A DNA stretch of 32,000 bases from Candidatus Methylomirabilis limnetica (GCF_003044035.1 NZ_NVQC01000013.1:121078-153077); one strand, 5' to 3'. Numbered from the stretch's first letter, positions 1,987 through 31,587 are shown. The notes: generated from the sequence alone by a model not told the origin. A program made the numbers and translations.

Positions 1987-3534
1987 ATGGGCAATCGTAT
2001 TATGATCTTCGACACCACGCTCCGGGATGGCGAGCAGGCGCCGGGCTGCAGCATGAATACCAGGGAGAAGCTGGAAATGGCCCGGCAACTGGCGCGTCTT
2101 AAGGTGGACGTGATCGAGGCCGGCTTTGCTATCGCCTCCGAAGACGACTTCGAGGCGGTCAAGACGATCGCCCAGAACCTGAAGGACGGACCGATCATTG
2201 CCAGCCTCTGCCGAGCTCGCGATATCGACATCGATCGCTCCTGGGAGGCGTTGCAATATGCTGAGCGCTCACGGATTCATATCTTCATCGCCACCTCCGA
2301 AATTCATATCACCTACAAGCTGAAATCAACCCATGAGGATGTCCTGCAGGCGGCTGTTACGGCAGTCAAGCATGCCAGGCGCTATACCGACGATGTCGAG
2401 TTCTCACCAGAGGACGCTCATCGGAGCGAGCAGGATTATCTCTGTAAGGTTGTTGAGGAGGTGATCAAGGCTGGCGCCACCACGATCAACATTCCAGATA
2501 CGGTCGGCTATGGTGTCCCCTGGGAGTTTGGAGCCCGGATCAAGAATCTGTTCGATCGGGTGCCCAACATCGACAAAGCGGTGATAAGCTGCCACTGTCA
2601 TAACGACCTTGGGCTGGCGGTGGCGAACTCGCTGGAGGCGATCAGAAACGGGGCCAGACAGGTTGAATGTACCATTAACGGAATCGGTGAGCGTGCCGGA
2701 AACGCCTCTCTGGAAGAGATCGTAATGGCGCTGCGGACACGAAAAGACCTGCTGGACTTCGAGGTCGGGGTCAATACGGAGGAGATCTACCGGTCCAGCA
2801 AGCTCCTGACCAGCATCATCGGGATCCCCGTCCAGCCGAATAAGGCCATCGTCGGCGCCAACGCTTTCGCGCACGAGGCCGGTGTACACCAACACGGCAT
2901 GCTGCAGAAGCCGCTCACCTATGAGATTATGACCCCCGAATCAGTGGGGGTGCCTCAGAGCCGACTGGTTCTGGGGAAGCACTCCGGGCGGCACGCCTTT
3001 AAGAAGCGGTTGGAGGAGCTGGGCGTGATGTTGGCTGAAGAGGCCTTAAACAGGGCCTTCATCCGGTTCAAGATCGTGGCCGATAAGAAAAAAGAGGTGT
3101 TCGACGACGACCTGCTGGCCATCGTCGAGGAGGAGGCCCTGGCTGCCGGCGAGACCTATACCCTTGAGTATCTGCAGTTCACGAGCGGTATCAACATCGT
3201 CCCCACTGCCACCGTGCGGCTCAAGCGAGAGAACGAGATCTTCCAGGAATCAGGCTGGGGGGATGGCCCGGTGGATGCGGCCTACAAAGCGATCGACCAG
3301 ATCACGAAGATCCAAGGGCGGCTGGCTGACTACTCGATCAGGGCCATCACCGCCGGGAAGGACGCGTTGGGCGAGGTGGTCCTGAAGCTGGAAGTCAATG
3401 GCCATACCGTAATCGGCAGAGGAACCTCTACCGATGTCATCGAGGCCAGCGTGAGAGCCTACCTGAACGCGATCAATAAGATTGTCGGCGCGGCTCGGCC
3501 TCCCAAAGATATGGCCGCGCCAAGGGGACTGTGA
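1987..3534 (+). CDS. leuA: 2-isopropylmalate synthase
   Basis: 515 aa with [31 protein letters not shown] and a C-terminal LeuA dimerisation/regulatory region. Confidence 0.9.
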
Positions 3535-3549
3535 CCGCGAGGACGTGAC

Positions 3550-4572
3550 ATGGCGAACAGAACATACACGGTAGCGGTCGCCGGAGCCACCGGCGCGGTC
3601 GGAGAGACAATGCTTCGACTGCTCGAAGAGCGGAACTTTCCCGTCCGACGACTGAAGCTCCTGGCCTCCGAGCGCTCAACCGGGAAGAGCCTCACCTTCA
3701 AAGGGGAGGAGATCAAGGTCGAGCGGCTGGACGATGGCTCGTTCCAGGGGATTGATATCGCCCTCTTTTCGGCCGGCGCCACCCGCAGTCAGGAGTTCGC
3801 CCCGGCGGCTGTCAAGGCGGGCGCGGTCGTCATCGATAACAGCTCCGCGTTCCGGATGCAGTCCGATGTCCCGCTCGTCATTCCGGAGATCAACCCGGAC
3901 GCGATTGCCGGGTATCAGGCTCGTGGCATCATCGCCAACCCCAACTGCACCACGATCGTCATGCTCATGCCGCTCAAGCCGCTGCACGACTATGGCCGGG
4001 TCAGGCGTGTCATCGTTTCGAGCTACCAGGCAGTGTCCGGTGCGGGGGCGAAGGGGATCGAGGAGTTGAGACGGCAGACGTTAGCCTGGGCCAGGGGCGA
4101 GCCGATCGAGGTCAGCGCCTTCCCCCAGCAGATTGCGTTCAACCTCATTCCTCACATTGACACGTTCCAGCCGAATGGCTACACGAAAGAGGAACTGAAG
4201 CTTGTCTTTGAGACCCGGAAGATCCTGGGAGACGAATCGATCGGGGTCTCTCCCACTACCGTACGCGTCCCCGTCTTTACAGCCCATTCAGTTTCCATGA
4301 ACGTCGAGACGGAACGAAAGATTGGGGTAGATAGGGCAAAGGAGTTACTCTCGAAGATGCCGGGACTTGTTGTGATCGATGAGCCAGAAGCAGGCCGCTA
4401 CCCGATGCCGATCTTCGCGGCCGGCAAGGACGACTGCTTTGTCGGTAGGATCAGAGAAGATCTTACGAATGATCATGCCCTCAACCTCTGGGTGGTGGGA
4501 GACCAGCTTCGAAAGGGGGCGGCCCTGAACGCCATTCAGATCGCTGAGCTGTTAGTGGACCGCTATCTTTGA
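3550..4572 (+). CDS. asd: aspartate-semialdehyde dehydrogenase
   Basis: 340 aa with an N-terminal VAVAGATGAVG Rossmann motif, active-site IANPNCTT, and SSYQAVSGAG. Confidence 0.9.
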   Translation: MANRTYTVAVAGATGAVGETMLRLLEERNFPVRRLKLLASERSTGKSLTFKGEEIKVERLDDGSFQGIDIALFSAGATRSQEFAPAAVKAGAVVIDNSSAFRMQSDVPLVIPEINPDAIAGYQARGIIANPNCTTIVMLMPLKPLHDYGRVRRVIVSSYQAVSGAGAKGIEELRRQTLAWARGEPIEVSAFPQQIAFNLIPHIDTFQPNGYTKEELKLVFETRKILGDESIGVSPTTVRVPVFTAHSVSMNVETERKIGVDRAKELLSKMPGLVVIDEPEAGRYPMPIFAAGKDDCFVGRIREDLTNDHALNLWVVGDQLRKGAALNAIQIAELLVDRYL

Positions 4573-4700: not shown

Positions 4701-4750
4701 CCCACTCCCCAACCCTCCCCCCTCGGAGGGGGAGGGGACGGGTGGGGGGG
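4701..4750. repeat. C-run/G-run hairpin repeat (family 1, copy 1)
   Basis: CCCTCCCCCC (4713-4722) is complementary to GGAGGGGGAGGG (4726-4737). Same style as the copies at 8858-8890, 21438-21467 and 30293-30329. Confidence 0.6.
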
Positions 4751-4765
4751 ACTTTCGAAGCAGTG

Positions 4766-8915: not shown

Positions 8916-10283
8916 TCAGCTCTTCTCGCGGATCTGTAGTTCTTTGATCAGGCGGGCAAGGTCGGTCCGCTGCAGGCCAAGGGCGCTCGCAGCCTTCGAT
9001 TGATTGCCTCCTGAGCGGTACAGGGTCTCCCGGATGACCTGTCGTTTGTAAGCCACCACAGTTTCATGGAAGTCGCGAGGCGCTTCTCCAGCAGGCGACT
9101 CCGGTGCGCCGGCAAGGACAGTCAGTGGGAGGTCTTCCGAGGTGATCCGATCGCGGGTACTCAGGACAACGGCCCGCTCGATAAAATTCGCCAGCTCTCT
9201 CACATTGCCTGGCCAGTGGTAGTGTCGCAGTAACTCCCATGCGTCCGGAGTGATCTCCTTAATTCGCTTTCCCATGCGGTCGCAGTATTGGGTGAGGAAG
9301 TGATTGGTGAGGGAGACAATGTCCTCCAGGTGGTCTCGGAGTGGGGGGAGCGAGACGGTAATGACATTGAGACGGCGGTAGAGATCCTCACGGAACAACC
9401 CCTCGCGGATCGCCTTGTCCATGCGGCGATTCGTGGCGGCAACGAAGCGGAGGTCGACCCGTATCGGCCTCGTCCCGCCGACCCGCTCAAACTCGTGCTC
9501 TTGAAGGACACGGAGCAGCTTTGCCTGTAGGTGCGGCTTCAGATCGCCGATCTCATCGAGGAAGGCCGTCCCGCCGTCGGCCAGCTCCAGCTTCCCGCGC
9601 TTGCGCTGGTGCGCGCCCGTAAAGGCTCCGCGCTCATGCCCGAACAAATCGCTCTCAAGCAGATCTTCCGATACTGCCACGCAGTTCACCACCACAAAGG
9701 GCTGATCCCGCCGCTGGCTCCATTGATGGATAGCTCTCGCGAATACCTCCTTGCCGGTTCCAGTCTCCCCCTGCAGGAGAATCGTAGAACTTCTGGCCGC
9801 CGCTCGTTTGGCGGCCTCGATGGCATTCAGGATCGACGGGCTGTGCCCGATGATCGGCCGATCTTGTCCCCTGACCTCCCCTGACAGTAGGAGGTTGTCC
9901 CGCTTCAACGCCTCCCGTTCTAGCGCCTTGCCGATAACCACTTCCAGATGCCCCGGGCTAAACGGTTTGGTCAAGAAGTCGTACGCGCCGGCCCGCATCG
10001 CCTCCACGGCCTTATCGATGGTGCCATACGAGGTCATTACGATAGTTGTCGTCTCGATCCCCTCATCGCGGATCGCCTTCAGCACCTCGAGGCCACTCTT
10101 CTTCGGCATCATAAGATCAAGGAGGGTGATGGTCAGCGAGTTCTCTCTCAGCCGCGTCAGCGCCTGCACACCATCTTCTGCCTCCACGACCTCGAACCCC
10201 ATGGCCTTCAGCCGATCACGCACCACCTCCCGAATGTCGGGGTCATCGTCCACGATCAGGATCTTGCTATGACTGGGGATCAT
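8916..10283 (-). CDS. sigma-54-dependent Fis-family response regulator (NtrC class)
   Basis: N-terminal REC domain (ILIVDDDPDIRE...LDLMMPKKSG), AAA+ core GETGTGKE and ESDLFGHERGAFTGA (GAFTGA), C-terminal HTH ...NQSKAASALGLQR. Confidence 0.9.
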   Translation of the reverse strand: MIPSHSKILIVDDDPDIREVVRDRLKAMGFEVVEAEDGVQALTRLRENSLTITLLDLMMPKKSGLEVLKAIRDEGIETTTIVMTSYGTIDKAVEAMRAGAYDFLTKPFSPGHLEVVIGKALEREALKRDNLLLSGEVRGQDRPIIGHSPSILNAIEAAKRAAARSSTILLQGETGTGKEVFARAIHQWSQRRDQPFVVVNCVAVSEDLLESDLFGHERGAFTGAHQRKRGKLELADGGTAFLDEIGDLKPHLQAKLLRVLQEHEFERVGGTRPIRVDLRFVAATNRRMDKAIREGLFREDLYRRLNVITVSLPPLRDHLEDIVSLTNHFLTQYCDRMGKRIKEITPDAWELLRHYHWPGNVRELANFIERAVVLSTRDRITSEDLPLTVLAGAPESPAGEAPRDFHETVVAYKRQVIRETLYRSGGNQSKAASALGLQRTDLARLIKELQIREKS

Positions 10284-10350: not shown

Positions 10351-10419
10351 TCATGTAGTGCCCCCCTGAAAGTCATTGGGGACGACGCGCTGCATGAGCG
10401 ACACGCACTCGCGCCGAAG
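10351..10419 (-). pseudogene. 3'-terminal remnant of a second hepT (DUF86) gene
   Basis: The minus strand reads ...RECVSLMQRVVPNDFQGGTT*. This aligns with the last codons of the intact hepT (...RECMSLMPCVAPND...) at 14547-14606. Confidence 0.55.
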
Positions 10420-10816
10420 TCACTTCCGCATACGGCGTTGTCTCTACCATCTGGTTCTCCCCATGAGGCTAACAGATATTAGCCGACAGTTCTTAGGCGG
10501 ACTCTACGATATTGGTGTGTGCAATGCAACACGATACTCGTGACACACTCCTTGGAACACTCTTGAACAAAACGCTTGCACGGGAACCCACTGTTGGATA
10601 GCCTGTTCGTCAGCTAGGGATGATACCCAATGCCTCAGGTGTGGACCCGTCGCCCCCTTGCCCCAGATTCCCGGTGGCCAGCAGGGTACTTGCAGGTGGC
10701 CATAGACTCTTTTCTCCAGGCGCTGACAAACGATTCGGTGGTTGCTGTGGTAGAGGCCGACCGGTTGCTCGGTGGGGCCGTCAGGTGTTGGCCATAGCAA
10801 CGGAGGTGAGAGACTG
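10410..10816 (-). repeat. conserved non-coding element, copy A (core 10469-10658, plus flanks shared with copy C)
   Basis: Aligns by eye with 14345-14533 and 15331-15520. The flanks 10410-10468 and 10659-10816 align only with copy C. Strand assignment is tentative. Confidence 0.8.
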
Positions 10817-11299
10817 ATGCGGCGAGCGTTGACCATCGCGGGCTCCGATTCCGGCGGTGGAGCGGGGATCCATGCCGATCTGAAAACGTTCACAGCCCTT
10901 GGTGTGTTCGGGACATCGGCGATTACGTCGGTTACGGCCCAGAACACGATCGGCGTCCATGGGGTGCACGATCTGCCGCCGGAGTTCGTAGGGGGCGCCA
11001 GATCGACTCGGTCCTTGACGATATCGCCATCGACGTGGCCAAGACCGGGATGCTTTCGAGCGCAGCGATCATCGAGGTGGTCACGGCGAAGGTGAAGGCG
11101 CATGCGATCCAGCGGTTGGTAGTCGATCCGGTGATGGTGGCCAAGAATGGGGCGCCGTTACTTCGGTCTGATGCCGTGAACGCGCTCATTGAGCGTCTGC
11201 TGCCCCTTGCCCTTGTTCTCACGCCGAATGTGCCGGAGGCTGAGGCGCTCACAGGGCTGACGATCACTGAGCTCAATGGGATGCGTCAGGCGGCGCGGC
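10817..11299 (+). pseudogene. thiD: 5' fragment of a thiD paralogue, frameshifted and truncated
   Basis: Colinear with thiD 15904-16384. Two extra G in the G-run 10991-10995 shift the frame, so the ORF track splits into 10772..11095 and 11035..11316. Homology ends at 11299. Confidence 0.85.
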
Positions 11300-11329: not shown

Positions 11330-12760
11330 ATGAATGTGCGTTCAATCCTGACAATTGTAGCCACGCTCGCGCTGGCGTTACCGGCACAGGCGGACGATGA
11401 AGGCGTCGCGCTGACGATCTACAATCAGAGCTTCGGGGTCGTGCGCGAGAAACGAGGCGTCGAGATCAAGGACAAGCTTGGCGTGGTCCGGTTCACGAAC
11501 GTGGCGGCGCAGATTGACGGCACGAGCGTGCAATTCAAATCGCTCACCGATCCCGCCGCGCGTGTGCTGGAGCAGAACTACGAGTATGACCTCGTCTCCG
11601 CGGACAAGCTCCTGCACAAATACATCGACAAACAGATCGCGGTGCTCACCAAGGACGGCTCGCGCTATTCCGGCAACCTGATGAGCTTCGACGCGAACCA
11701 ACTCGTCATCCGGCAGTACGGGGAGAAGGGCGAGATCGTGATGGTGCAGCGCGGCGACAACGTCAAAGACATCCAGTTTGGCGCGTTACCGGAAGGATTG
11801 ATTGCGAAGCCGACGCTGGTGTGGAAGCTCGCGACAGAGAAACCAGGCACGCATCTCGTCGAGGTCGCCTATCAGACCGGCGGCTTGAACTGGCAGGCCT
11901 CTTACAACGCCGTGCTCAACGCCAAGGATACCGGGCTGGACCTCGGCGGCTGGGTGACAATCAACAACACGTCCGGCGCGACCTATAAGGACGCGAGGCT
12001 CAAACTTATTGCCGGAGACGTGCGCCGGGTCCAGCCGCCGTCTCGCGCATACGCCATAAAAGGCGCGATGGCGATGGAAGCGGCCGCAGCGCCACAATTC
12101 GAGGAAAAAGCGTTCTTCGAGTATCACCTGTACACGCTGCAACGGCCCAGCACGGTCGCCGACAACCAAACGAAGCAGATCGAATTGCTTAAGGCGGCGG
12201 ACGTACCGGTCAAGAAGGTGTTGCTCTACGAGGGCGCGCCGCAATTCCGGTTCTACGGTGGACTGCACACGTCGGCGGAGTATGGCAGCCAGGAGTTCAA
12301 CAAGAAGGTCAACATCATCATCGAGGTCAAGAACTCGAAGGACAATCACATGGGCATGGCACTGCCGAAGGGCAAGGTGCGACTCTACAAACGCGACGAG
12401 GCCGATGCGGCGCTGGAATTCATCGGCGAAGACGAGATTGATCACACGCCGAAGGACGAGACGATCAAGCTGCACATCGGCGACGCGTTCGACGTCGTCG
12501 GCGAACGCAAGCGCACCGATTTCCGCGTGGACAGCGGCCGGCACGTCATGACCGAGAGCTTCGAGATTCGCATTCGCAACCACAAAGACGAACCCGTGGA
12601 CGTGCTCGTCAAAGAGACGCTCTATCGCGGGAACAACTGGGAGATCACCGCGTCGAGCCACAAGTGGACCAAATTCGACTCCGGCACCATCCACTTCCCG
12701 ATCACCGTAGCCAAAGACGGCGAGCGGGTCGTGACGTACACGGTGAGATATACGTGGTGA
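11330..12760 (+). CDS. secreted DUF4140/DUF4139-type (MuiA-like) protein
   Basis: Signal peptide MNVRSILTIVATLALALPAQA, then ALTIYNQSFGVVREKR...FTNVAAQIDGTSVQ and a beta-rich C-terminal region. GGTGGAAG lies before the ATG at 11330. Confidence 0.6.
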   Translation: MNVRSILTIVATLALALPAQADDEGVALTIYNQSFGVVREKRGVEIKDKLGVVRFTNVAAQIDGTSVQFKSLTDPAARVLEQNYEYDLVSADKLLHKYIDKQIAVLTKDGSRYSGNLMSFDANQLVIRQYGEKGEIVMVQRGDNVKDIQFGALPEGLIAKPTLVWKLATEKPGTHLVEVAYQTGGLNWQASYNAVLNAKDTGLDLGGWVTINNTSGATYKDARLKLIAGDVRRVQPPSRAYAIKGAMAMEAAAAPQFEEKAFFEYHLYTLQRPSTVADNQTKQIELLKAADVPVKKVLLYEGAPQFRFYGGLHTSAEYGSQEFNKKVNIIIEVKNSKDNHMGMALPKGKVRLYKRDEADAALEFIGEDEIDHTPKDETIKLHIGDAFDVVGERKRTDFRVDSGRHVMTESFEIRIRNHKDEPVDVLVKETLYRGNNWEITASSHKWTKFDSGTIHFPITVAKDGERVVTYTVRYTW

Positions 12761-12983
12761 TGTCTGAGGCGTTGAAGCTTTTAGCCGAGTGAAGCGAGTC
12801 GCCGCTCACCCAAGGCGGTCTGGCAAGACTGGTGAAGTCCAGCCAGTCCAGGGTCGCCAAGATGGAAGCCGACGATCCCTCGGTGTCTTGGACCTGCTCA
12901 TTAGAACCCTTCTGGCGCTGGGAGCCTCGAGTCGCGAGATAGCGAGAACCTTCGCGCCCTCTCGTCGCGCCACGGCGGCCTAA
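12760..12983 (+). pseudogene. decayed XRE-family HTH (antitoxin-like) gene
   Basis: MSEALKLLAE-TGA-SESPLTQGGLARLVKSSQSRVAKMEADDPSVS, then a -1 shift into LDLLIRTLLALGASSREIA...*. It carries one in-frame stop and one frameshift. Confidence 0.55.
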
Positions 12984-13053
12984 CGCTCCGCTTCATCTGC
13001 GGGCGCTCACGCCTCATCAATGGCGAGCCGTCAACTGCAAGCGGTAGTTAGGT
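12978..13053. mobile_element. attC-like hairpin site R (76 bp)
   Basis: The plus strand reads GCCTAAC ... GTTAGGT and the minus strand ACCTAAC ... GTTAGGC, so RYYYAAC / GTTRRRY appear on both strands. The interior is an imperfect palindrome (CCGCTT/AAGCGG, CGCC/GGCG, GCT/AGC with bulges). Confidence 0.5.
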
Positions 13054-13057
13054 CTTT

Positions 13058-13384
13058 TCACGAAAACAGTTCCGCCAAAGTCGAGAAAACCGCCGACTGT
13101 GTTTGCGGCCCAACTTTCCCCAATCTTTTCACCAATCTTGATTTGTCGACAGTTCGAATCTGGTCGAGAACAATCTGGGCTTGCTTGCCTTGGGAAACAC
13201 AAGAAACCCGAGAGGGATAATCTCGCCCCTTCGTGGTCATTGGGGCAACTATGACTGTGGCAATGAAACGGTTTAATTCGTCCGGCGAGATGATCAGACA
13301 GGGGCGACTCTTCTTGATCTCGCTTCCAACAGTAGGGTCCAGGTTTACCAGATAGACTTCAAACCGTTTCACTTCCATTCCCAT
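13058..13384 (-). CDS. mazF: type II toxin, MazF/PemK-family endoribonuclease
   Basis: 108 aa with VYLVNLDPTVGSEIKKSRPCLIISPD...VIVAPMTT...VLDQIRTVDKSRL. Confidence 0.85.
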   Translation of the reverse strand: MGMEVKRFEVYLVNLDPTVGSEIKKSRPCLIISPDELNRFIATVIVAPMTTKGRDYPSRVSCVSQGKQAQIVLDQIRTVDKSRLVKRLGKVGPQTQSAVFSTLAELFS

Positions 13385-13626
13385 TCTTCCTTATCCCAGG
13401 AAGTCTGGCTAGCCGCATCCGCATCCAACAACTTGTCATCGCCCCTTGCCGCCATGGCCCGGAACTTTTCCGCCCAGCCTTCGCGCGGCTTTTTCACTGA
13501 GCGAATGATAATCTGGCGGTCCCCAACCTGAAGCTCAACCTCGCCACTCAGATGGGTCTGCTCCAACACCACTTTGGGGATTCTAATGCCTTGGGAATTA
13601 CCGATGCGAACGATGCTTGCCTTCAT
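13369..13626 (-). CDS. mazE: type II antitoxin, AbrB/MazE/SpoVT-family
   Basis: 85 aa with IVRIGNSQGIRIPK swapped-hairpin motif. Overlaps mazF by 16 nt. GGAGGTGG RBS. Confidence 0.8.
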   Translation of the reverse strand: MKASIVRIGNSQGIRIPKVVLEQTHLSGEVELQVGDRQIIIRSVKKPREGWAEKFRAMAARGDDKLLDADAASQTSWDKEEWEWK

Positions 13627-13656
13627 CGAATACCACCTCCAACCAACCTTGATATA

Positions 13657-13690
13657 ATTACAATGTAATCACATCGTACTCTTTCGTCAA
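13657..13690 (-). promoter_or_regulatory. putative mazEF promoter with palindromic operator
   Basis: Minus strand: TTGACG (13690-13685), 17 nt, then TACATT. A perfect palindrome ATTACAtTGTAAT (13657-13669) overlaps the -10 region. Confidence 0.4.
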
Positions 13691-13701
13691 TAGTGAAATA
13701 G

Positions 13702-13768
13702 GCCCAACGTTCACGTCAACCGGCGCGCGCCGCTCTTGCGCGCGTCCGTGTTGGGCGTGCTGTTAGGG
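13702..13768 (-). mobile_element. attC-like hairpin site Q (67 bp)
   Basis: Minus strand: CCCTAAC-ag-CACGCCCAACA-CGGaCGCGCGC-aagagcg-GCGCGCGCCG-GTTGACGTG-aac-GTTGGGC. Homologous in architecture to the site at 31522-31587. Confidence 0.6.
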
Positions 13769-14334
13769 TGCCCTCGCTGCTCAGTGGGCTTGCCGACAAT
13801 TGAAGGCGTCGACGCAAAGTCCCAGTTGTCTTCATACACCGAAGCCAGCGGTGCAGGGACGGCGATCGGGCGATCATTGGGAAGACCGATGCGAAATAGA
13901 CGCCGGTCGCTGGTGCGGTGCGCCGGGTTGTCTTTGAGCCATAGTTGATGCTCGTCTCGCACGTATTTGGCAACGACGACACTCGGGACGATAAAAAATC
14001 GCAACGCGTACTTCGACAACTCAGTCCGGCTCGAATTGATGTGCACGAAGCAGTAGAACAGGTTCGGGTCAATGACGCCTTCGTGCTTGGCGCTCATCTG
14101 CCAATCGGTAACGAATGTTTCAAAGAGCCTTGAATCACTGTCGCGGGTGCGAGTCTCGAGGTTTGTCTTAACCTCGACTTCGTAACGTGCGCCCCTGCGG
14201 GGGTCGAGCACCAGGATGTCGATGTTCTTCGTATGACCCAGAGTCATGCCTGCGTCGTAGCCCCGCAGTGTCAATTGCGATAGGACGGCAAATTCTCCCG
14301 CGAGCCCTACTGAATTGGGTGGAATTCGCGCCAT
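13711..14334 (-). CDS. PD-(D/E)xK nuclease-like hypothetical protein
   Basis: The N-terminus GLAGEFAVLSQLTLRGYDA...NIDILVLD...YEVEVKT matches the G..GE / D / E-x-K layout of Hjc/YraN-type nucleases. No family was recognised for the C-terminal half. Confidence 0.55.
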   Translation of the reverse strand: MARIPPNSVGLAGEFAVLSQLTLRGYDAGMTLGHTKNIDILVLDPRRGARYEVEVKTNLETRTRDSDSRLFETFVTDWQMSAKHEGVIDPNLFYCFVHINSSRTELSKYALRFFIVPSVVVAKYVRDEHQLWLKDNPAHRTSDRRLFRIGLPNDRPIAVPAPLASVYEDNWDFASTPSIVGKPTEQRGHPNSTPNTDARKSGARRLT

Positions 14335-14344
14335 ATTGAGTGCC

Positions 14345-14540
14345 CTAACAGATATTAGCCGACACTTCTTGGACGGGCTTTACGATATTGGTGCGTGCTA
14401 TACCAACACGATACTCGTGACACACCCCTTGGAACATCCTTGAACAAAACGCTTGCACAGGAACCCCCTGTTGGATAGCCTGGTCGTCAGATATGGATGA
14501 TACCCAACACCTCAGGCGTGGACCTGTTGCCCCCTCCAAC
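14345..14540 (-). repeat. conserved non-coding element, copy B (core only)
   Basis: 14345-14533 aligns with 10469-10658 and 15331-15520. On the minus strand it is bounded by GTTGGAG (14540-14534) and GTTAGGG (14349-14343). Confidence 0.8.
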
Positions 14541-14546
14541 GCGGTG

Positions 14547-14909
14547 TTAGCCCACCTCGTCATTGGGGGCGACGCAAGGCATGAGCGACATGCACTCGCG
14601 CTGAAGCACCGATACATCGTGTTCGACGATCGCCCACACGACAGCGTCATCCACGGTCGGGTACTCGTGGGTAAGCTGGTTGCGGAAGTCCACGATCCTC
14701 CGTGCCCGCGTGATTGCATCGAAGGCATCCGGTGCGACTCGGCCGAGTGCCGCGGCCGCCTCTCCGATGATGATGAACTCGCGCTCGACCGAAGAGCGGA
14801 CGAGGCGATTGCTTTCATACCCGGCGAGATTAAGGTCTCGAACCGCGACGGTGATCGCGTCGCACGACTCGATGATGTCGGCCAAGTAGGCACGCGCATC
14901 ACGCGGCAT
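14547..14909 (-). CDS. hepT: HepT (DUF86) toxin of a HepT/MNT module
   Basis: 120 aa with the Rx4HxY motif RNQLTHEY. Overlaps the upstream MNT gene by 11 nt. Confidence 0.85.
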   Translation of the reverse strand: MPRDARAYLADIIESCDAITVAVRDLNLAGYESNRLVRSSVEREFIIIGEAAAALGRVAPDAFDAITRARRIVDFRNQLTHEYPTVDDAVVWAIVEHDVSVLQRECMSLMPCVAPNDEVG

Positions 14910-15207
14910 AAAGCATCTGCCTCGTACGCTCGATGTCGCGGGCGATGTACGGGTTTTTGATGGCCCCCACCATGACCAAGTCGATCTTCAGGCCTAATAC
15001 GGTCCGGAGTTCTTCCAGCATGCCGAAGTAGGCCTCGACTCGAGCGTACGGCTCCATCGGCCCGAACTCGACCAACAGGTCCAGGTCGCTCTCATCCGGT
15101 TTGAAGTCATCATGCAAAGCCGAACCGAACGCGTACAGCCGTACCACACCATGGCGCACGCAGGCCGCAGCTATCGCTTGGCGATTGTTCTCGAGAACAC
15201 CGATCAT
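14899..15207 (-). CDS. mntA: MNT-family nucleotidyltransferase antitoxin
   Basis: 102 aa with LYAFGSALHDDFKPDESDLDLLVEF (the GS...D.D nucleotidyltransferase motif). Confidence 0.85.
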   Translation of the reverse strand: MIGVLENNRQAIAAACVRHGVVRLYAFGSALHDDFKPDESDLDLLVEFGPMEPYARVEAYFGMLEELRTVLGLKIDLVMVGAIKNPYIARDIERTRQMLYAA

Positions 15208-15268
15208 GACGTGTCTCCCACGTTCATCGTACCTACAGCGGGTGAGGCGCGCACCGGCCAGGAACGAT

Positions 15269-15660
15269 CCGCGCCGAAGTCACTTCAGTGTGCGGCGTTG
15301 TCTCTACCCTCTGGTTCCCCCCCGATGGGGCTAACAGATATTAGCCGACACTCCTTGAATGGACTCTACGATATTGATGCATGTAAGGCAACACGATACT
15401 CATGACGCGCCAATTGGACAACTTTTGAACAAAACGCTTGCACAGGAAGCGACCGTTGGATAGCCTGTTCGTCAGATATTGATGATACCCAACAACTTAA
15501 GCGTGGACCAATCGCCCCCTTTAACCGAGATCCCCGGTGGCCAGCATGGTACTTGTAATTGGCCATGGGGTCTTTTCTTCAGGCGGAGACCAACGATCCG
15601 GCGGTTGCTGTGGCAGAGGTCGACCGGATGCTGGATGGGGCGGGCAGTCTCCGGTGGAGT
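15269..15660 (-). repeat. conserved non-coding element, copy C (core 15331-15520, plus flanks shared with copy A)
   Basis: Aligns with copy A across both flanks and the core. It lies between the mntA start and thiD. Confidence 0.8.
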
Positions 15661-15759: not shown

Positions 15760-15874
15760 GTCATTCTGGGCTTGACAAGCCTGCCCCGTACTTGATACGG
15801 GGGAATCCAGTCTTTCTGTGCTGGATTCCCGCTCCCCGCTTAAGGCATGCGGGGACAAGCTTCGCGGGAATGAC
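15760..15874. repeat. multi-hairpin REP-like element (family 2)
   Basis: Outer arms GTCATTC (15760-15766) and GAATGAC (15868-15874) enclose three hairpins: CCCCGTA/TACGGGG, GGAATCCAG/CTGGATTCC, CCCCGC/GCGGGG. It is absent from the otherwise homologous copy A. Confidence 0.7.
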
Positions 15875-15903
15875 GGCTTCGGTACAACGGAGGTGATAAA
15901 CCG

Positions 15904-16698
15904 ATGCGGACGGCGCTCACGATAGCAGGCTCCGATTCCGGGGGTGGAGCGGGGATCCAGGCTGATCTGAAGACCTTTGCCGCCTTGGGTATCTTCGGGA
16001 CATCGGCGATTACGTCGGTCACTGCCCAGAACACGGTCGGTGTCCAGGGGGTGTACGATCTGCCGCCGGAGTTCGTCGGGCGCCAGATCGACTCGGTCCT
16101 GGAAGATATCCACATCGACGCGGCCAAGACCGGGATGCTTTCGAGCGCAGCGATCATAGAGGTGGTCGCGGAGAAGGTGAAGGCGTATGCGACCATGCGG
16201 CTGGTGGTCGATCCGGTGATGGTGGCCAAGGGTGGGGCGTCGTTACTTCGGCCTGATGCCGTGAAGGCGCTCGTCGAGCGTCTGCTGCCCCTTGCCCTTG
16301 TTCTCACGCCGAATGTGCCGGAGGCTGAGGCGCTCACAGGGCTGACGATCACCGAGCTCAATGGGATGCGTCAGGCGGCGCGGCAGATCCACGGCCTCGG
16401 CCCGAGGTACGTTGTCCTCAAGGGGGGCCACCTTGGCGGTCGCGCGATCGATCTCCTGTTCGACGGAAGTCACTTCACGGAGTTGGATGCCGAGCGGATC
16501 GATACGCCGCACACCCACGGGACCGGATGCGTCTTCTCTGCGGCCATCACCGCGGAGCTGGCCAAGGGCAGTCCGGTTCCAGAGGCAGTTGCCATCGCCA
16601 AGCGCTTCATCACGGCTGCAATCCACTATGGGTTTCGGCTTGGCAAGGGATTCGGTCCGACCGATCCGATGGCGGCCGCAAGGAGCCTCACGCCATAA
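15904..16698 (+). CDS. thiD: hydroxymethylpyrimidine/phosphomethylpyrimidine kinase
   Basis: 264 aa with [21 protein letters not shown]...[11 protein letters not shown]...HTHGTGC. GGAGGTG RBS. Confidence 0.9.
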
Positions 16699-30183: not shown

Positions 30184-30292
30184 CTCTCACTCCACCGCAG
30201 TAACGATCTCCCCACCGACTTTCCTCCATGACCGCTTTTACCATAGCATACGGCCCTTGGACTCCGCTACAGTAGATCACTCCTCATCACCC

Positions 30293-30329
30293 AATCCCCC
30301 CCTTTCAAAAAGGGGGGCGAGGGGGGATT
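30293..30329. repeat. C-run/G-run hairpin repeat (family 1, copy 4)
   Basis: AATCCCCCCCCTTT caa AAAGGGGGG cga GGGGGGATT, with alternative nested pairings. Confidence 0.65.
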
Positions 30330-30367
30330 TGGCGGTGACACTGATTGGAAAGTCTCCCCCACCCGCG

Positions 30368-30467
30368 TCACCGCGAGGGAGCGGAGCGACCGAAGCAATC
30401 CCATCGTTCTTCACACCCTCAAGGACATTCAGATTGCCACGCTCCCTTCGGTCGCTCGCAATGACGA
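30368..30467. repeat. REP-like long imperfect hairpin (family 4)
   Basis: GAGCGACCGAAG (30384-30395) pairs with CTTCGGTCGCTC (30446-30457), and CAATC pairs with GATTG. Confidence 0.6.
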
Positions 30468-30839
30468 GCCAGTGAGTGGCATAGTCTGGCTTTAAACTTT
30501 CATACCCAAGAGCGCCCTATATCCACATGGCTGCCAACACACTACGACGATCTATACCCATGTAATGAACCGAAGGGACAAGGGAATCCACAGCCCAGTC
30601 GATAGGCTCGAATTTAGCTAGGGCAGTTCGCTGTGGGAAGGTTGAATAGGCTGACCTGGGTGCAGCGTTTGCCGTCATCAGGATTTATAAGAATGTATTG
30701 CTAACTACGCGATAAGGCTGTACTATTTGCTCTGACCTAAAAACGGTTGGTCTGGATATACTGGTCAGCATACATAATAGTTGGGCAACATGTACCCCAG
30801 TGTTGTCTGACTCTTTAATCAAGGGGAAGGGAGAGCAAT

Positions 30840-30905
30840 ATGTTTTGTCTAAAGTGCGGCAAGGAAAACTCTAACGACGTAAAGTTTTTCGTCTTGACCG
30901 TGTAG
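30840..30905 (+). pseudogene. possible frameshifted zinc-ribbon mini-gene
   Basis: MFCLKCGKENSNDVKFF... (CxxCG knuckle) stops after 21 codons. A second knuckle, CRKICG, is readable in another frame just downstream. GGGAAGGGAG lies upstream. Confidence 0.25.
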
Positions 30906-31002
30906 AAAGATCTGTGGTGTACTTAGCCGTACATCTAATGATTGGTCAGCCGTGGTCCGGCGCTTGGAGTAAAATTTACCCGACATTTCGAGAGGTAGGG
31001 GC

Positions 31003-31224
31003 ATGAAGCAATCGTCGGTTGTGCACTGCGATCCTGATATCCTGGGGGGCACCCCGGTGTTCGTTGGAACGCGCGTTCCTGTTCAGGCGCTGATTGACTA
31101 TATCGAGGGCGGCCACTCCCTTGAAACGTTCCTTGATGACTTCCCAACCGTGAGCCGGGACATCGCGGTGGCTGCTCTCGAGCAGGCGAAAGTGCATTTA
31201 CTCGCCGATGCGCGTGCTGCTTGA
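31003..31224 (+). CDS. DUF433-family protein (putative antitoxin)
   Basis: 73 aa with ...DPDILGGTPVFVGTRVPVQALIDYIEGGHSLETFLDDFP..., the typical DUF433 core. Confidence 0.8.
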   Translation: MKQSSVVHCDPDILGGTPVFVGTRVPVQALIDYIEGGHSLETFLDDFPTVSRDIAVAALEQAKVHLLADARAA

Positions 31225-31510
31225 CGAATGTTTCCCCCGAGCCTTACGCGTGGAGCTTCCTGGCCACGAAATCGCGACGGTCGCTGAAGCCGGGTGGGCT
31301 GGCGTTAAAAATGGCGCGCTCTTGCAACTTGCGGCAGCGCGGTTTGAAGTTCTCTTGACCGTTGATCGCAATCTAGAGTATCAGCAGAACTTTTCCAGTC
31401 TTACGATCGCCGTCATCGTAGTTGACTCCCCAAGCAACGATGTTGAGGTGCTTCTGCCATTGTGCCCAAGGTCCTCGAAGCCTTACCCAAGGCCAAGCCT
31501 GGAGTCGTGA
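31208..31510 (+). CDS. DUF5615-family PIN-like protein (putative toxin), with a likely 3' frameshift
   Basis: MRVLLDECFPRAL...LLTVDRNLEYQQN. Overlaps the DUF433 gene by 17 nt. After about 31455 a different frame gives the family-like tail IVPKVLEALPKAKPGVVTHVHG*, ending at 31527. Confidence 0.7.
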   Translation: MRVLLDECFPRALRVELPGHEIATVAEAGWAGVKNGALLQLAAARFEVLLTVDRNLEYQQNFSSLTIAVIVVDSPSNDVEVLLPLCPRSSKPYPRPSLES

Positions 31511-31521
31511 CGCATGTCCAC

Positions 31522-31587
31522 GGCTAACAGCGCAATCACACCGACGCGCGCAAAAGCGGTGCGCGCGGGTGATTGCGAACGTTGGAC
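31522..31587 (+). mobile_element. attC-like hairpin site P (66 bp)
   Basis: GGCTAAC-ag-CGCAATCACa-CCGaCGCGCGC-aaaagcg-GTGCGCGCGG-GTGATTGCG-aac-GTTGGAC. Same architecture as site Q at 13702-13768. Confidence 0.6.

Follow-up and report, generated by a model that had tools for sequence, protein, structure and literature searches.

Upstream of thiD in Candidatus Methylomirabilis limnetica, a member of the NC10 phylum, toxin–antitoxin genes and a nuclease-like gene follow one another on the minus strand as units separated by GTT motifs, an arrangement that raises the question of whether the locus is the work of an integron and, if so, what became of its integrase. The stretch analysed here (the window) comprises 32,000 nucleotides (nt) of contig NZ_NVQC01000013.1 (121078–153077); relatives and other contigs carrying related sequence are given as L numbers. 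A first-pass annotation of the window had proposed integron-type cassettes without an integrase. The region is very probably the cassette array of a sedentary chromosomal integron, lying next to thiD, with a decayed integrase gene (intI). The proposal is thus supported as regards cassettes without a working integrase, but the locus is not strictly integrase-less, because it retains intI pseudogene fragments.

Direct reading of the window found the GTT motifs and the order of units exactly where that annotation had placed them on the minus strand. One copy (C) of a ~200-nt repeat ends in ...ggctaatatctG|TTAGCC, with the G at 15335 (the stroke marks the presumed crossover, G|TT). The mntA-hepT unit ends in GGCTAAC (14552–14546), accgc and GTTGGAG (14540–14534), and a second copy (B) of the repeat ends in ...ctG|TTAGGG, with the G at 14349. 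The open reading frame (ORF) of a 207-residue protein is followed by ...aacGTTGGGC (13708–13702), and mazEF by ...agcGTTAGGC (12984–12978).

Three hairpins in the window, termed Q, R and S, carry the signature of attC recombination sites. Both strands were scanned for NNNNAAC...GTTNNNN pairs closing a stable fold, and a site was taken as attC where RYYYAAC (inner core) and GTTRRRY (outer core) lay 55–140 nt apart on the same strand, downstream of an ORF. The scan recovered Q and R, together with S, which had not been listed before; all three show this spacing of inner and outer cores, and Q overlaps the 3′ end of the 207-residue ORF. When either strand is folded as single-stranded DNA, the sites reach z −2.4 to −4.4 relative to dinucleotide-shuffled sequence. 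They are built alike: a 2 × 3-nt internal loop lies beside the outer box, and the arm with the inner repeat has two single-base bulges, which is how the unpaired spacer and the extrahelical bases of attC are arranged. Q and S align without gaps, with compensating changes in the stem and common spacers (..TAACAGCRC.. and ..GAACGTTGG..). Q, R and S are genuine attC-type hairpins. The site at the hepT end is vestigial: the inner and outer repeats are kept with only 5 nt between them and no stem, and its GTT is the antisense of an Asn codon in the intI motif VAPxN(P/R). Several neighbouring attC sites, in L121 and L124, follow the textbook order, with inner core, 5 nt, L box ... L box, 6–7 nt and outer core.

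Homology between copies of the repeat had been said to break exactly at the GTT positions, and for three of the units breaks at G|TT are seen in independent contexts: the DUF433/DUF5615 gene pair that precedes site S, the 207-residue gene and mazEF, all of which recur at 90–100% identity in unrelated contigs. At least four unrelated contexts have an identical DUF433 protein. Alignment places the start of DUF433/DUF5615 homology exactly at G|TTAGCC in L005, L009 and L013, the GTCAGCC of the window being a point mutation; the homology stops at the attC outer repeat in L007 and L014, where the attC is kept, and earlier in L005/L009 and L013. The 207-residue gene has a copy of at least 90% protein identity in another genome context (L111), with homology from the GTT to a few bases past the outer GTT. 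The mazEF pair occurs in five contexts behind five different attC sites, its homology running from G|TT(G/A)GGCCTATTTCAC to the GTT of R′, the outer repeat of site R. These three of the four units are discrete mobile units bounded at G|TT. For mntA-hepT, the search for a second context or a fuller copy of its attC matched only the same locus.

The junctions also carry an internal signature. Once a cassette is integrated, the upstream G is followed by six bases that form the second half of the cassette's own outer core, and these are hence complementary to the inner core of that cassette. The 7-mer at the junction pairs with the unit's own inner repeat at all seven positions in mntA-hepT (GTTAGCC/GGCTAAC) and in the 207-residue gene (GTTAGGG/CCCTAAC), at six of seven in DUF433/DUF5615 (T→C), and with five pairs and one G–T wobble in mazEF. 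The rule is also seen in L117 (TTAGGT/ACCTAAC) and across copies of mazEF, in which the start TTAGGC (L122, L124) complements the inner repeat GCCTAAC (L121, L123). With three free positions, the chance expectation is 1/64 per cassette.

Two side observations concern the DUF433/DUF5615 cassette in other contigs. In L007 (3460–3585), an ORF-less unit of ~110 nt with 15-bp terminal inverted repeats (GAGGCTGTAGAAAAA) and GTT on both sides lies within the outer core of the attC of the cassette; in L013 the cassette is preceded by the same end, and the unit may be a miniature inverted-repeat transposable element (MITE) that targets attC sites. L005 (7300–10530) has a longer integrase-less array flanked by the genes for LysE and an ABC transporter, containing BrnA, Unstab_antitox, BrnT, YhcG-like and DUF433/DUF5615 genes, the last attC of which is degenerate after the inner core (GTCTAAC).

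The cargo had been described as toxin–antitoxin and nuclease modules, and protein matches agree. MazE (PF04014), MazF (PF02452, 1e-29), HepT (PF01934, 7e-16) and MntA (PF01909, 2e-12) identify mazEF and mntA-hepT as standard type II toxin–antitoxin modules; MntA also matches the candidate defence family PDC-S09, and the DUF433/DUF5615 pair was identified as adjacent toxin–antitoxin genes. The 207-residue protein has no match in Pfam or PADLOC; its UniRef name is DUF4365, its family counts more than 500 proteins across phyla, and E14, D39, E54 and K56 are invariant in 43 homologues. Its AlphaFold model (predicted local distance difference test, pLDDT, 83) finds its best folds in the Protein Data Bank among PD-(D/E)XK nucleases (I-Ssp6803I, the SPARDA nuclease domain, EcoRV and Hjc) at modest template-modelling (TM) scores of 0.3–0.6, and on this predicted fold the nuclease-like label holds.

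The ~200-nt repeat is present in three copies, at 10459–10659 (A), 14336–14536 (B) and 15321–15521 (C); copy B matches A and C only from GGAGGGGGC to CTGTTAG and departs from them on both sides, as the first-pass annotation had noted. Its reading of the repeat as a cassette boundary element does not stand: sequence comparison shows the repeat to be a platform relic, composed of the antisense of the first ~17–25 codons of a divergent intI and the integrase-to-cassette spacer, with an attI-like end. In L124, a 167-residue ORF begins inside the repeat copy and runs away from the cassettes; within NCBIfam it matches only two integron-integrase models (TIGR02249, 1.5e-5; PRK15417, 1e-3), and it passes PF13495, the integrase N-terminal SAM-like domain (35 bits, cut-off 27). 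The terminal core GGCTAATATCTG|TTAG is invariant in seven aligned platform copies, including that of L129, which lies beside a deleted intI; a truncated copy in L017 has A|TT at the junction. Alignment of L129 with the repeat copies shows conservation of the coding start and of the terminal core T(C/T)GGCTAATATC(a)TG|TTAG, with the intervening spacer diverged; the L129 core itself is GGCTAATATCaTG|TTAGGC. Across the window and its relatives, eight different cassettes begin at this junction, among them mntA-hepT (intact at C, decayed at A) and the 207-residue gene (at B) in the window, and in relatives a DUF6308-like ORF (L017), a 188-residue ORF (L117–L120), a TIR-TPR gene (L129) and, at two such junctions in L124, a 233-residue lipoprotein gene and a DUF805 gene. 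The core (GGCTAATATCTG|TTAG; GGCTAATATCTGTTAG core) is a candidate attI of an uncharacterised integrase lineage.

Two other origins of the repeat have to be weighed here. It could be a structured non-coding RNA or a regulatory leader of thiD, the hairpins being terminators or repetitive extragenic palindromic (REP)-type repeats and the GTT pattern a coincidence; two of the three copies lie upstream of thiD or of its partial duplicate thiD′, and the repeat is 81–90% conserved between genomes with thiD 83% identical. Copy B, however, is not near thiD, the terminator-like scan matched none of the three hairpins, and homology between unrelated contexts breaks at G|TT. Rfam gave no match in the window at gathering thresholds, and the repeat matched neither Rfam nor, as a transfer RNA (tRNA)-type integration target, ARAGORN. 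This reading is accordingly scarcely credible. The repeat was likewise rejected as a conserved RNA, for want of covariation on either strand, and as an attC-like hairpin, its fold scoring z −1.5. A 19-mer from the repeat searched against representative genomes returned five chance matches and one real relative, L017.

In the second alternative, a foreign integrase inserted the cassettes at ordinary GTT sites (attG-type), the repeat being resident hot-spot DNA upstream of thiD. IntI can insert cassettes at GWT sites genome-wide, and such insertion has been proposed as the origin of small CALINs (attC-site clusters that have no integron-integrase) (Loot et al., bioRxiv 10.1101/2022.09.11.507474). 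The junction between hepT and platform B does use a GTT within coding sequence, and no intact intI lies nearby; yet the repeat contains the beginning of an integron-integrase gene, with its start and first codons, the core at the end of the repeat is kept beside a true, if deleted, intI in L129 while the spacer has diverged, and eight different cassettes share the exact junction. Taken together, core conservation, intI codons and the eight cassettes point to the attI behaviour of a former platform, not to random attG use, and leave insertion by a foreign integrase improbable.

No intact tyrosine recombinase ORF is present in the 32 kb, but the first-pass annotation, which had stated that no tyrosine recombinase was present at all, is wrong at the level of pseudogenes, because four integron-integrase relics are present: three N-terminal, beside the platform copies, and one C-terminal, near 30.5 kb. 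Within N-terminal relic C, the stretch 15560–15616 is homologous to codons ~63–83 of the L124 integrase fragment. The 132-nt stretch that follows copies A and C is a further integrase remnant, because the window copies carry a decayed version of the L124 integrase reading frame. In L129, a member of this N-terminal family (68% identical) continues directly into a 153-residue ORF that scores 216.9 bits on TIGR02249 (positions 164–315), against 85–89 bits for Xer models, and that includes what we take, from comparison with IntI1, to be the counterpart of the integrase-specific insertion; the L129 intI is itself internally deleted. L123 has an internally deleted intI (140 bits), co-oriented with and upstream of the mazEF cassette, with the attI end tctaattattG|TTAGGC. 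IntI-type genes, deleted in both L129 and L123, are thus found in the lineage of these cassettes.

The integrase relics also bear on whether the array was built by a different site-specific system, such as Xer at dif-like sites, of the kind found in dif modules on Acinetobacter plasmids. The core GGCTAA-tatctg-TTAGCC, which would then be of the Xer type, is a 6-6-6 palindrome like the core sites of tyrosine recombinases; toxin–antitoxin modules are common cargo of dif modules too; and an Xer-like integrase of 291 residues lies near the DUF433 unit in L007. Against this, the units end in imperfect hairpins of 55–76 nt with AAC/GTT ends and single-base bulges and not in 28-bp sites, their first six bases complement their own distal repeat, a feature specific to single-strand attC recombination, and the adjacent recombinase relics match integron-integrase models only. 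Reading of the unit ends found no 28-bp XerC/XerD sites with a 6-bp spacer, although no dedicated dif search was made. The L007 integrase stands beside an IS91 transposase and across an assembly gap from the cassette. A Xer-type origin is therefore most unlikely. As a candidate for the cognate IntI, the same L007 protein was rejected for its position and for its score of 189.7 bits, below the integron-integrase cut-off of 265.

The C-terminal relic defines a second decayed integron, at 30.5 kb, with its integrase co-oriented with the cassettes. Its core of 31 codons (30520–30609, TTTIYTHVMNRRDKGIHSPVDRL) was found by tblastn with integron integrases, and it matches integron-integrase models only (TIGR02249, E 4.8e-6, model positions 288–315 of 315); as a 41-residue piece it scores 26 bits against a cut-off of 265, short of the intI of a complete integron. 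DUF433/DUF5615 is more likely to be the last cassette of this integron than an off-target insertion, because the relic lies ~330 nt upstream of it. Between the two, a truncated zinc-ribbon ORF (30840–30905, plus strand; MFCLKCGKENSNDVKFFVLTV, then a stop) with ~78% DNA identity to the start of the L124 DUF805 cassette is a cassette remnant, whose homologue in L124 is the first cassette behind platform 2. About 60 nt upstream of this remnant lies a candidate attI end, catacataataG|TTGGGC. Upstream of the relic, most of the integrase gene is replaced by an inverted-repeat element.

Comparison with relatives found no invariant block at the locus: the sequence upstream of thiD differs in every relative examined, and the content at the thiD-proximal junction varies. 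Downstream of that junction, L117–L120 have ORFs of 188 and 91 residues, L017 a DUF6308-like ORF, L114–L116 an IS630 transposase, and L124 the 233-residue lipoprotein gene and the DUF805 gene, followed by mazEF. The thiD of L124 is 88% identical at the nucleotide level, and its two platforms are separated by one cassette without an attC. The closest variant, L122, is 99.06% identical over 4.9 kb, with an HI_0787_N gene in place of the 207-residue gene; it is weak evidence, being possibly an assembly chimera. A thiD-based search of JGI metagenomes returned only relatives of 65% identity or less, which were of no use for synteny.

If the locus is a decayed integron, its cassettes would have been captured singly by IntI, the folded bottom strand of each circular cassette's attC being joined to the double-stranded attI core at G|TT, and intI would then have been destroyed by deletions and point mutations. 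Any present-day movement would depend on an integrase supplied from elsewhere or on homologous recombination. Read along the minus strand, the layout would be intI relic and attI C, mntA-hepT, intI relic and attI B, the PD-(D/E)XK gene with attC Q, and mazEF with attC R; a third platform, past the unrelated DUF4139 gene and the thiD′ fragment, would comprise intI relic and attI A and a deleted mntA-hepT. Each platform's first cassette probably takes its promoter from the spacer, given that the first ORFs start 12–25 nt past the junction in four cases.

The triplication of the platform is unexplained. For platform B, a possible origin is an unequal exchange, mediated by the integrase, of the hepT attC with the GTT (Asn codon) in the 5′ end of intI; between sister chromosomes, such an exchange would give exactly a platform, a cassette and a platform of 17 codons, and the layout of L124 is analogous. 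That the interleaved platforms as a whole are products of an integrase recombining a cassette attC with the GTT in the 5′ end of its own gene on the sister chromosome is a tentative and rather doubtful idea. Were it true, the exchange would duplicate attI and the promoter region inside the array while leaving truncated integrase copies, giving the array internal points of insertion and promoters from which expression of the cassettes downstream starts anew, and tandem platforms made in this way would be a new route for integron rearrangement and self-inactivation. The array is bracketed by thiD and thiD′, whose match to PF08543 covers only the first 49 profile positions, and L017 likewise has a partial duplicate of the thiD 5′ half (3402–3603); the origin of this bracket is unexplained.

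Several points weigh against a decayed integron and temper the assignment. The attC sites were called by manual criteria. The mntA-hepT unit has no foldable attC and a single context, so that its status as a cassette depends solely on the junction rule, and a mosaic inside mazEF in the closest-strain variant, L122, could be an assembly chimera. No sigma-70-like promoter above the scan threshold was found inside the repeat. Homologue searches for an intact intI of this lineage found only fragments, and identified no enzyme for the sites: all 16 homologues of the N-terminal fragment have 179 residues or fewer, and the best 120 homologues of the L129 C-terminal part have 268 or fewer, several of them on megabase contigs. 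This points either to wide decay of the integrase lineage or to genes that are systematically split or wrongly called.

The features are collected in Table 1. In plus-strand order, the gene for the sigma-54 response regulator is followed by a 48-nt remnant of the hepT 3′ end, the 53-nt leader, copy A, the 132-nt stretch, thiD′ and the DUF4139 gene. Beyond this gene, the minus-strand block comprises R, mazF, mazE, Q, the 207-residue ORF, copy B, hepT, mntA, the 53-nt leader and copy C, after which come the repeated 132-nt stretch, a small inverted-repeat element and intact thiD. In the degenerate mntA-hepT copy behind platform A, mntA and most of hepT are deleted between the short repeats cttcGgcgcg and cttcAgcgcg. 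The small inverted-repeat element (~15770–15885), which sits between integrase relic C and thiD, is MITE-like (gtcattcccgcgaa...ggaatgac) and is also found in L017 (~605–710); similar GC-rich palindromic repeats occur in the window at ~30277–30480 and ~4720–4760. A short ORF on the plus strand (12760–12984), opposite to the block and between site R and the DUF4139 gene, has a weak HTH_31 call in the near-identical contig L002 and is perhaps what is left of an antitoxin cassette in reverse orientation.

Table 1 Features of the window, with positions counted from its first nucleotide
Feature	Position	Strand	Details
Sigma-54 response regulator	8916–10283	−	Gene call
Degenerate mntA-hepT copy behind platform A	10372–10472	−	53-nt leader fused to last ~48 nt of hepT
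Platform relic A (putative)	10459–10659	−	Antisense intI 5′ end and spacer; core GGCTAATATCTG|TTAGCC at 10484–10467, crossover between 10473 and 10472
intI N-terminal relic A	10630–10797	+	Aligns with L124 integrase fragment, with 36-residue internal deletion
thiD′, frameshifted duplicate of thiD 5′ half	10798–11292	+	84–93% identical to 15885–16377; far end of array
DUF4139 gene	11336–12760		
attC site R (mazEF cassette)	12978–13053	−	ACCTAAC..CCGCTT...AAGCGG..G|TTAGGC; 76 nt; z −2.5
mazEF cassette	12984–13707	−	mazE 13369–13626, mazF 13058–13384; start TTGGGCCTATTTCAC
attC site Q (207-residue gene cassette)	13702–13768	−	CCCTAAC agcac ... gtgaac G|TTGGGC; 67 nt; z −3.45
207-residue gene cassette	13708–14348	−	ORF 13711–14334; start TTAGGG complements own inner repeat CCCTAA
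Platform relic B (putative)	14349–14539	−	Antisense intI codons 1–16 and spacer; attI-like core GGCTAATATCTG at 14360–14349
intI N-terminal relic B	14493–14540	+	MDDTQHLRRGPVAPSN, then hepT junction
Vestigial attC of mntA-hepT cassette	14534–14552	−	GGCTAAC accgc G|TTGGAG
mntA-hepT cassette	14540–15334	−	mntA 14899–15207, hepT 14547–14909; start TTAGCC complements GGCTAA at own end
Platform relic C (putative)	15335–15522	−	Ends in attI-like core GGCTAATATCTG at 15346–15335
intI N-terminal relic C	15478–15650	+	Start codon mutated to ATT; IDDTQQLKRGPIAPFNRDPRWPAWYL, then stop
thiD, intact (HMP/HMP-P kinase)	15904–16698	+	Conserved neighbour of the platform in all relatives
C-terminal intI relic	30496–30621	+	Ends TTTIYTHVMNRRDKGIHSPVDRLEFS, then stop; upstream of DUF433/DUF5615 cassette, same strand
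DUF433/DUF5615 toxin–antitoxin cassette	30946–31581	+	5′ core mutated: GTCAGCC, not GTTAGCC
attC site S (after DUF433/DUF5615 pair)	31522–31587	+	GGCTAAC agcgc ... gcgaac G|TTGGAC; 66 nt; z −4.1

With this locus, integron-type gene capture reaches the nitrite-dependent methane oxidisers of the NC10 phylum. A literature search turned up no description of an integron in Methylomirabilis or NC10, the only trace being a group IIC-attC intron listed for M. oxyfera (PMC3001079). Identical toxin–antitoxin and nuclease cassettes occur in unrelated contigs, some of them labelled Opitutaceae, Acidobacteria or Bacteroidia. The locus also offers a worked example of how integrase-less cassette clusters originate, here by integrase decay, and its relics are too short for the standard pseudogene criterion, so that it would be classed as having no trace of an integrase.

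A CALIN is taken as a cluster, devoid of any integron-integrase gene, in which one strand has at least two attC sites within 4 kb, and Q and R lie ~650 nt apart on the minus strand. The locus resembles CALINs in its small array, in having no intact intI nearby and in its cargo of toxin–antitoxin or unknown genes. Of 279 CALINs, 15 lie near intI pseudogenes, as defined by more than 50% profile coverage (Cury et al. 2016, PMC4889954), and the locus fits this minority class; its relics, however, comprise only 16–60 N-terminal or 31 C-terminal codons, below the pseudogene criterion of that study, and three putative intI-5′-end/attI platform relics are interleaved with its cassettes. With the sedentary chromosomal integrons of Vibrio and Xanthomonas it shares a fixed position, by thiD (in M. 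limnetica, L017, L117–L120 and L124), variable cassette content among relatives, toxin–antitoxin cassettes and a recurring attC family (Q and S), whereas it differs in its non-functional integrase, its very short array, the thiD/thiD′ bracket and its host phylum, NC10/Methylomirabilota. The simple site of attI1, in class 1 integrons, is GCCCTAAAACAAAGTTAGGC. The candidate attI of the locus appears to resemble it in its inverted half-sites CTAA and TTAG, 6–7 nt apart, in the crossover at G|TT of the right half and in its position at the end of the intI-to-cassette spacer, but the two seem to share no homology beyond the core, and no accessory direct repeats were identified at the locus. Finally, DUF433/DUF5615 with its single attC S resembles the isolated cassettes of SALIN (a lone attC site with no integron-integrase) or attG insertions, and the junction of hepT with platform B likewise has its GTT in coding sequence; unlike such insertions, the DUF433/DUF5615 cassette stands 330 nt downstream of a C-terminal intI relic. 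Measured against these systems, the locus is a genuine if rather unremarkable case of a known class of element, the CALIN or decayed chromosomal integron.

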